Origin: an uncultured Candidatus Saccharibacteria bacterium
GTDB taxonomy: Bacteria; Patescibacteriota; CALEFQ01; G965231055
Reading direction: 5' to 3'
Length of the DNA: 64,000 bases
Assembly: GCA_965231055.1 (NCBI GenBank)
Contig: OZ246411.1
Coordinates: 48,334-112,333, forward strand
Positions 48,062 to 53,925 of this stretch are shown here, in pieces. The position numbers and the translations under genes were made by a program. Position 1 is the first letter of the stretch, and each line of letters starts with the position of its first letter. Below the pieces are notes generated by a model. The model was given only the letters and a program-made list of their open reading frames with translations, did no database searches and had not been told where the DNA came from.

Positions 48062-48143
48062 TTGTAGTTTGTTATTAACTAATATTAAAACATGCTCTTT
48101 TTAAGCTTTGTTATTATACCACAATACAATGCACAGATGCAAT

Positions 48144-48689
48144 TTATCGCATCCGCATTTTCAATTCCCATTTCACAAGATTATCCAAAATATATTGCTG
48201 AAATCGTGCATATTTATTTTGATTTCTGATAATGCGATCGTAATATGATTTTTGCCAGGCAAAATCTACGCCATTTAATTGTCGATGAATTTCGCGGGTT
48301 GTGGATGATTTGAATCCGTGAATGATTTTAGGCAAATGCATTTTGGTGCGATATTGATTATATGAATATTGCGATTGTAGGGAATGCAGATCTGCATTCC
48401 CTACAATCATTGCGGATATCATATCCGCATTTTCAATAATCAATATTCCATGAATATGATCGGGCATGATGATAAAATAACCCAAAACCACATTTTTGAA
48501 ATGAAATGGAATTGATCGCCAACATTCATTCGCAATTTTTCCGATTTGGAATAAAATTATTTTGCCATTTTTTATTTTACCCAAAACACGCTTGCGATCT
48601 TTGACACAAATCGTAATAAAATAATAACCTGGACTACTATAATCATATCTTTTTAATCTGATTGATTTACGATTGCGATATTTTTGCAT
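48144..48689 (-). CDS. RAYT/IS200-like HuH tyrosine transposase carrying an in-frame REP-like palindrome
   Basis: GYYFITICVKDR; HuH PDHIHGIL; catalytic WQKSYYDRII; about 25-aa insert encoded by GTAG-flanked palindrome 48373..48440. Confidence 0.7.
   Translation of the reverse strand: MQKYRNRKSIRLKRYDYSSPGYYFITICVKDRKRVLGKIKNGKIILFQIGKIANECWRSIPFHFKNVVLGYFIIMPDHIHGILIIENADMISAMIVGNADLHSLQSQYSYNQYRTKMHLPKIIHGFKSSTTREIHRQLNGVDFAWQKSYYDRIIRNQNKYARFQQYILDNLVKWELKMRMR
48373..48440. repeat. REP-like element: 34-bp perfect palindrome attGTAGggaatgcagatctgcattccCTACaat plus 19-bp palindrome tgcggatatcatatccgca
   Basis: read directly; lies inside the transposase CDS; 15-nt atccgcattttcaat repeated at 48151 and 48423. 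Confidence 0.7.
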
Positions 48690-48718
48690 AAAAAATCCCC
48701 CCTTTCATAGGAGGGATT
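48686..48718 (-). terminator. groEL terminator
   Basis: atcccccctttcataggagggat hairpin + T-run on minus. Confidence 0.65.
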
Positions 48719-48736
48719 TTGAATTTTGGATAAAAA

Positions 48737-50386
<1,650 letters not shown>

Positions 50387-50402: not shown

Positions 50403-50696
50403 TTATTTTTCTACGATTCCTATAATATCTTCTTCCGAAAGAACTAGAAATTCTTTTTCACCTACTTTGAATTCGTCTGCTGAATATTTTTTGAACAAAA
50501 CCATATCTCCTTTTTTTATCAATGGCTTAACCACATTTCCTTCTGGGGTAATTCTGCCGTCACCTATTGCGATAACTTTTCCTTGCTCTGGTTTTTCTTT
50601 GTCTACAGTGTCAGGGAGTACTATTCCTGATTTGGTTTTTTCCTCAACCTTCATTGGTTCGAGGATAACTTTGTCTCGTAGTGGTTTGATTTTCAT
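50403..50696 (-). CDS. groES: co-chaperonin GroES
   Basis: 97 aa, canonical GroES. Confidence 0.95.
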   Translation of the reverse strand: MKIKPLRDKVILEPMKVEEKTKSGIVLPDTVDKEKPEQGKVIAIGDGRITPEGNVVKPLIKKGDMVLFKKYSADEFKVGEKEFLVLSEEDIIGIVEK

Positions 50697-52990: not shown

Positions 52991-53860
52991 ATGGGTTCTT
53001 TAAAAAATAAATTTGGAAGTGATATCGAAAACCCTATGTTTTATCGCGAGACCATGTTACCCTTTTGCAAAAAGAATCGCACCATCAGTATCCAAAATCA
53101 AGAAATGAGGAAGCTTCAAAAAAGATTTGCAAAATATATTAGGCAAATCAAAAGTTGGAATGAAGAAAAGTCTGTTGTCGTAAATTTGATACTCCATTCA
53201 TATCAAGGAAGATTTTTCTATCTCACAGATATTTGCGATGCCTTTTCATCTGTAAAGCTAGATCGATTTTTGGGAGCTTTTTCAAGGGCGAGCCATAATC
53301 ATTGGAGTGATGCCAAAGAATTTCTGCAAATCTTTTTTTCCGAAAACGGAGAACTAATTACCGGAGGATCAGCATCTCCCGCAATCTTTAGCCTGTACTG
53401 TCACTTATTGCTAGATGTCGAAATCAGAAACGTAATTGAAAATCAACCAATACTGTACACGAGATATGTTGACAACCTAACATTTTCATCACCCAAAAGA
53501 ATTGGAGCTAAGACAAGAAAAGAAATAAGAAGAGCTATGGCAAAAGTTGGGTTTAGACCAAATCATGGTAAATCCAAAGTCCTCGACATAAAAAAGGGAC
53601 CAATAAATATCATGGGACTAAATATGGATGACTCGAGACAGGTATTTTTCCGCAGAGAAATGCTGGCAAAAATTCACGGACTCCTACATTCATACAAGTC
53701 TAGAAAAGATGTCCCAATCGAGGTGTTACTTGGTTATTACGGCATATTCAAAGATCTTTATATAAACCACAGCCACCGCGCAAAAACAACATCACTTTCA
53801 GAAAAAATCAAAGCTCAATTTCAAGAACTATTTTTACAAACACGAGGGGATTATTTTTGA
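52991..53860 (+). CDS. retron-type reverse transcriptase (YXDD box = YVDN)
   Basis: RT motifs KKNRTISIQNQEMRKLQ (1), NLILH (NAxxH), FYLTDICDAF (A), GGSASPAIFSLY (B'), YTRYVDNLTFSS (C), IMGLNM (VTG-like); SD aggagg. Confidence 0.75.
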   Translation: MGSLKNKFGSDIENPMFYRETMLPFCKKNRTISIQNQEMRKLQKRFAKYIRQIKSWNEEKSVVVNLILHSYQGRFFYLTDICDAFSSVKLDRFLGAFSRASHNHWSDAKEFLQIFFSENGELITGGSASPAIFSLYCHLLLDVEIRNVIENQPILYTRYVDNLTFSSPKRIGAKTRKEIRRAMAKVGFRPNHGKSKVLDIKKGPINIMGLNMDDSRQVFFRREMLAKIHGLLHSYKSRKDVPIEVLLGYYGIFKDLYINHSHRAKTTSLSEKIKAQFQELFLQTRGDYF

Positions 53861-53878: not shown

Positions 53879-53925
53879 AAATAAAAAGACCCTCCAACTT
53901 TTGGAGGGTCTATATGGACTACTAT

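Follow-up and report, generated by a model that had tools for sequence, protein, structure and literature searches.

An in-frame double-foot REP in a RAYT-type transposase gene of a Saccharibacteria bacterium

The window analysed here, a stretch of 64,000 nt of contig OZ246411.1 from an uncultured Candidatus Saccharibacteria bacterium, contains beside groEL a small gene of the REP-associated tyrosine transposase (RAYT) type, and within the reading frame of this gene lies a perfect palindrome with GTAG and CTAC feet. The locus raises the question of whether the palindrome is a repetitive extragenic palindromic (REP) sequence lodged inside a transposase gene, or a piece of ordinary protein-coding sequence. 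We find that it belongs to a REP family dispersed in other genomes, and that such palindromes are kept as DNA and not as peptide. The gene is very likely a RAYT of TnpA_Y1 subclass 2.4, a placement that is a match of signatures and not a position in a tree with reference sequences, and the palindrome the double-foot REP associated with its lineage, situated in a disordered loop between strand beta3 and helix alphaC. Subclass 2.4 was defined by Quentin, Siguier, Chandler and Fichant (2018, BMC Genomics 19:475; PMC6006769) and corresponds to RAYT group 4 in the numbering of Bertels et al. (2017, PMC5581495). In-frame REPs within RAYT genes were already described for it in 2018, and the window gene is a further example.

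The transposase gene and its loop

The gene and the motifs that identify its product are as follows.
48144..48689, minus strand: RAYT / TnpA_REP-type Y1 HuH gene, 181 aa (open reading frame (ORF), Pfam and NCBIfam matches, alignment, AlphaFold2 (AF2) model and Foldseek)
48450-48458, minus strand: HuH motif H78-I-H80 of the RAYT gene (alignment invariants)
48225-48257, minus strand: WQKSYYDRIIR of the RAYT gene (aligned to the E. coli TnpA_REP structure, 4ER8)
48177-48194, minus strand: catalytic-type Y166-ILD-N170 of the RAYT gene (alignment invariants)

An earlier note on this DNA, made from the sequence alone, had proposed a Y1 transposase of the RAYT type at this position, and the proposal is supported. 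The window protein belongs to the Y1 HuH superfamily by its HuH motif, by a tyrosine with an asparagine four residues on, and by its fold; its identity as a Y1 HuH / TnpA_REP protein is supported jointly by sequence, profile and fold. Pfam Y1_Tnp (PF01797) matched at 28.4 bits against a cut-off of 23 (E = 2e-6), in the C-terminal half alone because the insertion described below breaks the alignment, and the best NCBIfam family was REP_Tyr_transpos. With a profile of 45 homologues, the sole sequence match in the PDB was E. coli TnpA_REP (4ER8), in which the HuH strand and WQ...Y-x3-N-P align. The 45-sequence alignment has six invariant residues, Y17, T26, H78, H80, Y166 and N170; Y166 and N170 align with Y115 and N119 of E. 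coli TnpA_REP, and W145, Q146, D151, R152 and R155 with its W94, Q95, E100, H101 and R104. The AF2 model has a confident core (predicted local distance difference test score (pLDDT) 84, predicted template modelling score 0.79). Used as a Foldseek query, it returned Y1 transposases throughout the top 30 PDB matches, led by ISDra2 TnpA, IS608 TnpA and 4ER8, the last with the highest query TM-score among the leading matches (0.56).

The motif positions given previously also hold (GYYFITICVKDR at 48594-48629, PDHIHGIL at 48441-48464 and SYYDRII at 48228-48248), but SYYDRII is not the catalytic motif for which it had been taken. The invariant tyrosine is Y166, in QQ-Y-ILDN, the residue aligned to E. 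coli Y115. SYYDRII is instead part of the WQ...D-R...R motif, which in E. coli touches the GTAG foot of the REP (PMC6006769).

Between the HuH motif and the next helix lies the segment that holds the palindromes. Its features, together with the direct repeat that overlaps it, are listed here.
48339..48434, minus strand: variable loop, residues 86-117, ENADMISAMIVGNADLHSLQSQYSYNQYRTKM, running from the HuH strand to the next helix and containing both palindromes
48373..48408, no strand assigned: perfect 36-bp palindrome (18+18), GATTGTAGGGAATGCAGATCTGCATTCCCTACAATC, in frame, 13 codons past the HuH motif
48377-48404, no strand assigned: 28-nt double-foot REP core, GTAGGGAATGCAGATCTGCATTCCCTAC, of the form GTAG-GGG...CCC-CTAC, read as VGNADLHSL (residues 96-104)
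48411..48429, no strand assigned: second palindrome, 19 bp, TGCGGATAT-C-ATATCCGCA, read as NADMISA
48417..48437, no strand assigned: direct-repeat copy 1, TATCATATCCGCATTTTCAAT, overlapping the second palindrome and read as IENADMI
48145..48165, no strand assigned: direct-repeat copy 2, TATCGCATCCGCATTTTCAAT, in a different frame, read as ELKMRMR* and giving the C-terminus and stop codon

An insertion of about 25 aa had been suspected at this point, and the estimate holds. In the alignment, residues 86-117 have no counterpart in the segment-free homologues P0045 and P0082, nor in E. coli TnpA_REP, and across homologues the loop varies in length or is absent. The AF2 model gives the loop block-mean pLDDT values of 46-62 and leaves residues from about 89 to 117 without secondary structure. 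The main palindrome is perfect and in frame as previously described, and measures 36 bp instead of the 34 bp first given. The frame passes through it as ATT GTA GGG AAT GCA GAT CTG CAT TCC CTA CAA, encoding IVGNADLHSLQ. It is the longest palindrome in the window, where the next perfect stem has 11 bp and ten shuffles of the window gave stems of at most 9, and it folds far more stably than expected both as DNA (-16.6 kcal/mol, z = -11.2) and as RNA (-25.6 kcal/mol, z = -10).

The 19-bp palindrome reported beside it is confirmed. Local alignment of this second palindrome with the REP scored 23, against a null distribution with a 99th percentile of 22 and a maximum of 26, which weakly suggests that a second REP, decayed or variant, stands beside the main one. 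Taken together, the two hairpins fold at -25.7 kcal/mol as DNA (z = -9.2) and -37.9 kcal/mol as RNA. The 15-nt direct repeat ATCCGCATTTTCAAT does occur at 48151 and 48423, and extends to 19/21 nt. An exact repeat of at least 15 nt arose in 1 of 500 shuffles, and 3 of 76 other 801-nt windows had an exact repeat of 15 nt.

A REP maintained as DNA

A scan for GTAGGGAAYGC-N6-GCRTTCCCTAC, with one genome per species, yielded at least 119 loci and at least 123 sites. They reveal a 28-nt palindrome family, mostly extragenic and dispersed, in metagenome-assembled genomes (MAGs) of at least 12 phylum-level groups. Hosts among the matches listed comprise Poribacteria, Thermodesulfobacteriota and other 'delta' lineages, Aminicenantes, Elusimicrobiota, Chloroflexota, Patescibacteria (Moran-, Falkow-, Parcu-, Gracili-, Peri- and Saccharibacteria), Gammaproteobacteria, Dadabacteria, Spirochaetes, Planctomycetota, Bacillota and Bacteroidales. 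The Poribacteria carry many loci per chromosome, with at least 15 of the 119 loci listed on chromosome OY764061.1 alone. Among the same matches, the flanks of the copies are unrelated, and the conserved unit is therefore the 28-mer itself; 16% of copies are spanned by an open frame of 200 aa or more, the figure for random positions in these loci being 79%. Only six of the 123 sites listed lie inside a RAYT-like ORF, every time in the VGN frame and directly after the HuH motif. The six central bases are nearly always self-complementary (AGATCT in 74 of the matches listed, ATATAT in 21, AAATTT in 6, TCGCGA in 3 and CGGCCG in 2). Which centre occurs is largely uniform within a genome, and an in-gene copy has the variant of the dispersed copies of its own genome.

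Two further observations concern individual hosts. In the Saccharibacteria MAG CAZCSM010000029.1, a RecJ-like (DHH-type) ORF of 564 aa has the exact REP of the window, GTAGGGAATGCAGATCTGCATTCCCTAC, around its residue 19 (L118:6206-6233), where it is translated in frame as VGNADLHSL. In Poribacteria, the REP often abuts the conserved motifs AGGAGTTACGCACTTCA / TGAAGTGCGTAACTCCT and GCCCGATGAATCGGGCAACTACAG (e.g., at L011, L018, L021, L036, L039 and L086). These junctions suggest a larger composite repeat, resembling a bacterial interspersed mosaic element (BIME) or a miniature inverted-repeat transposable element, in genomes of 6-7 Mb with many REPs. A CRISPR repeat was considered as the nature of the palindrome and ruled out, the copies being solitary or irregularly spaced with unrelated flanks. 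In Rfam, only four tRNAs in the window reached the gathering threshold, and the palindrome drew nothing beyond generic hairpin matches below threshold.

Among homologues, the in-gene palindrome also has copies close by. Copies with at most three substitutions, several of them identical, were found outside the gene in 16 of 59 metagenome loci, often flanking it or in arrays. The relative P0026, on a 1.87-Mb contig (L200:10283-11400), has the exact REP of the window in its gene and four further copies downstream, of which three are identical and one has two changes in its GTAG foot, spaced by about 220-230 nt; its in-gene REP is preceded by repeated half-sites, read as VGNADKKGN twice. In the relative P0002 (L203:883-910), the last 4 nt of the RAYT gene are already the start of a second REP, the TAG of whose GTAG foot serves as the RAYT stop codon. 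A third locus, L206, has an identical palindrome in the gene and in flanking copies. The identification of the window palindrome as a REP, as first proposed from the letters alone, is thus supported by the dispersed family, by identical in-gene and flanking copies in relatives, and by the palindromic homologues described next.

The homologues were metagenome genes, eighty in all, picked by peptide patterns outside the loop (the HuH motif, WQKSYYD and GYYFITIC), so that the sample is not biased towards palindromes; with the window gene, 78 of the eighty made up a set of 79. The median length of the longest perfect stem was 11 bp for the loop and 6 for the remainder of the gene; in loops recoded by synonymous-codon shuffling it was 5.3. 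Loop stems reached at least 9 bp in 60 of the 79 genes, which means that about three quarters of the sampled homologues have a DNA-maintained palindrome in the loop after the HuH motif. Stems of at least 12 bp were present in the loop of 39 genes and elsewhere in the gene only once, and 53 genes outdid 199 or more of their 200 synonymous shuffles. GTAG and CTAC fell inside the stem in 32 of the 60 loop palindromes. The sequence varies by lineage (e.g., GTAGGGGCACGGCATGCCGTGCCCCTAC, GTAGAGACGCAAGATTTTGCGTCTCTAC and GTAGGGGCGAAAAATTTTTCGCCCCTAC), nearly always as 28 nt with GTAG/CTAC feet, and the REP class was shared with the nearest neighbour in core protein sequence in 43 of 46 cases, where chance would give a proportion of 0.39. 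Considering all loci together (L120-L199 and L001-L119), double-foot palindromes of all classes are almost always exactly 28 nt (GTAG + 20 + CTAC) and perfect to the centre, which is more than a hairpin alone would need.

The peptide itself offers a competing explanation, by which the segment is an ordinary protein motif, VGNADL[HR]SLQ, and the palindrome arose by chance or as a side effect of selection on the peptide. In favour of this, most of the closest homologues share the peptide VGNADL[RH]SL. Yet synonymous shuffles of the same peptides yield stems of about 5 bp against the 11-18 observed, and all nine third-codon positions of the window REP, as worked out from its sequence, are paired. 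These third positions pair with second positions of the mirror codon, and hence the palindrome is not a by-product of the peptide alone. Identical DNA is also read in two frames in different homologues: GTAGGGGCACGGCATGCCGTGCCCCTAC is translated as VGARHAVPL in L155 and L171 but as RGTACRAPT in L141. Overall, the in-gene palindromes are in frame 0 in 32 cases and in frame 1 in 10, and never in the frame that would read TAG as a codon. Among seven protein-selected relatives and the window gene, codons covary across the stem: asparagine AAT goes with histidine CAT in four of four variants (the window included), and asparagine AAC with arginine CGT in three of three distinct genes. Moreover, the 28-mer is abundant outside genes among the matches listed, and the region is a low-confidence coil in the AF2 model. 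An origin in protein sequence or chance is refuted by the shuffles, the third-position pairing, the two frames and the extragenic copies, and we consider it exceedingly improbable.

It is thus the DNA of the palindromes, and not the peptide, that is kept: they do not survive synonymous shuffling, they are read in two frames, their codons covary, and they match the flanking REPs. Homologues keep palindromic DNA at this site, and do not carry the segment as ordinary sequence free of palindromes, the finding by which the earlier note's idea stood to fall. For annotation, this means that strings such as VGNADLRSLQ, VGARHAVPL and VETQDFASL in proteins labelled 'transposase' or 'hypothetical' are translated REPs and not protein motifs.

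Arrival, activity and role of the in-gene REP

How a REP might come to lie in the gene can be drawn from the characterised TnpA_REP enzymes of E. coli, S. maltophilia and Marinomonas, whose biochemistry on cognate single-stranded REPs (perfect palindromes included) and whose co-evolution with REPs are treated in PMC8266576. By analogy with these enzymes, the RAYT protein would bind single-stranded DNA in which the REP has folded into a hairpin, reading the GTAG foot via its W-Q...D-R...R motif. HuH-bound metal and Y166 would cut and rejoin the DNA, and REPs would be spread in this way. They would build up beside existing REPs, with the enzyme's own gene among the places affected, and the survivors within the gene would be only those copies that keep the frame and sit in the permissive loop. 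An in-gene REP of this origin would consequently be kept as DNA and would follow the REP class of its lineage, with the peptide incidental.

Immediately upstream of the RAYT gene of the window, and on its strand, stand groES (50403-50696) and groEL (48737-50377), and two hairpins bound the RAYT gene.
48697..48716, minus strand: groEL terminator hairpin with a T-run that reaches the RAYT ATG (context, outside the REP system)
48132..48157, minus strand: imperfect hairpin over the RAYT stop codon (-7.2 kcal/mol, z = -3.0; terminator-like match)
Upstream of the gene, the minus strand showed no promoter-like site. A G-run in 48690-48736, a possible ribosome-binding site of the RAYT gene, sits in the 3' arm of the groEL terminator hairpin. 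The hairpin over the stop codon may be a relic of a REP that overlapped the 3' end or a weak terminator; its local alignment with the REP was not significant, with a score inside the null distribution. The flanks and 3' end of the gene as a whole likewise gave local alignment scores inside the null, and a REP remnant there was dropped as a candidate, the stop-codon hairpin being only modestly stable. Farther off, a perfect hairpin with an 11-bp stem, AGACCCTCCAA-CTT-TTGGAGGGTCT, lies at 53887-53911 just past the ORF 52991-53860; it resembles a terminator and has no relation to the REP.

Several results weigh against the account of a subclass 2.4 RAYT that carries the REP of its lineage. The match to REP_Tyr_transpos, at 60.7 bits, is under the family's cut-off of 80. 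The search for other copies proposed earlier succeeded in other genomes but not locally, as the 64-kb window has no second REP at up to three mismatches, no local array and none of the cognate flanking REPs (the REPtron arrangement) that are typical of the family; nor was any other GTAGG...CCTAC palindrome found in it. The residue following N170 is leucine (YILDNL), where homologues have a near-invariant proline, and the C-terminus KWELKMRMR* is shortened, homologues running past KWEL; the P171 to leucine change and the short C-terminus leave the activity of the window protein uncertain. Our literature search found no biochemistry for any member of subclass 2.4; binding and cleavage are argued by analogy. 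The window copy itself may be weakly active, or a relic in decay, in view of the leucine after N170, the C-terminus rebuilt by the direct repeat, the lack of flanking REPs, and a start without a promoter-like site into whose ATG the groEL terminator runs.

The stability of the hairpins and the situation behind groEL also invite the idea of a cis-regulatory element: a stem-loop in the middle of the messenger RNA that slows ribosomes or sets a processed 3' end, or a site of RAYT autoregulation via its own gene or transcript. The very stable RNA fold of the REP alone and of both hairpins together fits this, as do the same position of the palindrome in the 60 homologues and the start right behind the groEL terminator with no promoter-like site, which suggests tight limits on expression. 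On the other side stand homologues with a palindrome-free loop and an apparently intact gene (P0045, P0082, P0112, L142 and L190), as well as a copy number in the loop that ranges from 0 to several across homologues, unlike a tuned regulator; the fixed position is explained equally well by there being a sole permissive loop. A regulatory role is compatible with the subclass 2.4 account, but we regard it as unlikely. Because some homologues have no loop palindrome and the copy number is variable, we argue for the in-gene REP as a mostly passive passenger.

A further proposal makes the in-frame REP a heritable master copy, inseparable from the transposase gene, so that enzyme and substrate would move together and seed REPs in unrelated hosts; such a unit might additionally feed back on the transposase's own expression. 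One and the same stem, GTAGGGAACGC/GCGTTCCCTAC (11 bp), recurs across MAGs of no fewer than 12 phylum-level groups, which range from Patescibacteria to Poribacteria and Thermodesulfobacteriota, and the RAYTs with this REP class average only 48% core identity. A master copy, if real, would explain an identical stem across phyla despite protein identity of about 50%. The tracking of RAYT phylogeny by REP class and the centre variant shared between in-gene and dispersed copies agree with it, and the distribution of subclass 2.4 is patchy and resembles that of horizontally transferred genes (PMC6006769). However, the flanking REPs that are common in relatives would co-travel equally well, and a protein identity of about 50% speaks against recent transfer, with slow co-evolution under a binding constraint accounting for the conserved stem. 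There is also no seeded REP population within the 64 kb of the window. A phage or plasmid vehicle found no support either: the REP pattern had 0 matches in 2.9 million viral contigs, and the RAYT protein is rare on plasmids, with only five large, non-mobilizable plasmid records. We hold the master copy to be doubtful, and prefer the passenger REP of a subclass 2.4 RAYT.

Comparison with known systems

The window case is ordinary, being one more example of a published RAYT class, probably in a bacterium with a small genome. What is new here is quantitative, namely the family statistics, the reading of one palindrome in two frames, the codon covariation, the tracking of the core protein by REP class, and the spread of one REP family across phyla; the original description of subclass 2.4 was largely qualitative, and the present figures go somewhat further. 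We found no later literature that develops the in-gene REPs of this subclass, no mention of REPs inside RAYT genes in Nunvar 2010 or Di Nocera 2013 (PMC3733652), and no occurrence of GTAGGGAACGC in a relevant context in the literature searched. Since each gene holds a copy of its associated REP, subclass 2.4 offers a convenient natural system in which to follow the co-evolution of RAYT and REP specificity. One RAYT relative, P0030 (L205:12787-17967), lies about 2 kb upstream of a Cas12a-like / Cas4 / Cas1 / Cas2 cluster, probably by coincidence.

Subclass 2.4 proteins have the HuH motif NH[IFV]H together with WQ and YIxNNP, are 194 aa long in the median and lack a conserved C-terminal extension (PMC6006769, Table 1). 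The window protein is similar with DHIH, WQ and YILDNL in 181 aa, and the consensus of its homologues is MPNHIHGI / WQKS / YIxxNP; it departs from the subclass consensus in having DHIH for NHIH, which is common among the homologues, and leucine for P171. The subclass has an insertion between beta3 and alphaC of variable length and sequence, modelled as a peripheral extension, and one of its traits is double-foot REPs that lie in the frame of tnpA_REP, past the HuH motif and ahead of the Tyr motif (PMC6006769). The window gene matches this with its insertion at residues 86-117 and the in-frame REP at 96-104, between the same motifs. The REPs of the subclass are described as 'long' and 'double foot', with 5' GT[AG]G, three G:C pairs at the base of the stem and 3' C[TC]AC (PMC6006769), to which the GTAG-GGG...CCC-CTAC element at 48377-48404 corresponds. 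Unlike other members, the window gene has no flanking REPs, with one REP in 64 kb. Its host also differs from the described hosts, Cyanobacteria and Bacteroidetes, in its apparently small, low-GC genome (a contig of 843,892 bp with 37% GC).

The E. coli TnpA_REP (YafM, 4ER8) shares with the window protein the Y1 HuH fold, aligned HuH, WQ...R and Y...N motifs, and a GTAG-tagged hairpin as substrate. The two are 16% identical in the Foldseek alignment of the model to 4ER8. In contrast to the window protein, the E. coli enzyme belongs to subclass 2.2 and has a C-terminal tail, and its REPs are imperfect, bulged and single-footed and flank the gene as a REP/BIME REPtron. The closest solved folds are those of IS200/IS605 transposases (IS608 and ISDra2 TnpA), Y1 HuH enzymes that likewise recognise hairpins in single-stranded DNA. 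Unlike the window REP, IS200/IS605 hairpins are subterminal and outside the gene, the Tyr motif is Y...Q, and the elements are multi-copy, often with tnpB. The signature of class 2 RAYT/TnpA_REP proteins is a Tyr context of Y---NP, not Y---Q, together with the W-Q...[ED]-[HR]...R motif implicated in GTAG recognition (PMC6006769).

Short GTAG palindromes that are tolerated in frame, often in replication or repair genes, are known from the intragenic REPs of Di Nocera et al. (2013, PMC3733652) and from the Rickettsia palindromic elements. The REP family of the window behaves in a similar manner in the RecJ-like gene, a DNA-repair gene, of the Saccharibacteria MAG described above. The insertions of Di Nocera et al. 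and of Rickettsia, however, are scattered over unrelated genes, whereas the REP described here lies in the gene of its cognate transposase, at a site common to the family.

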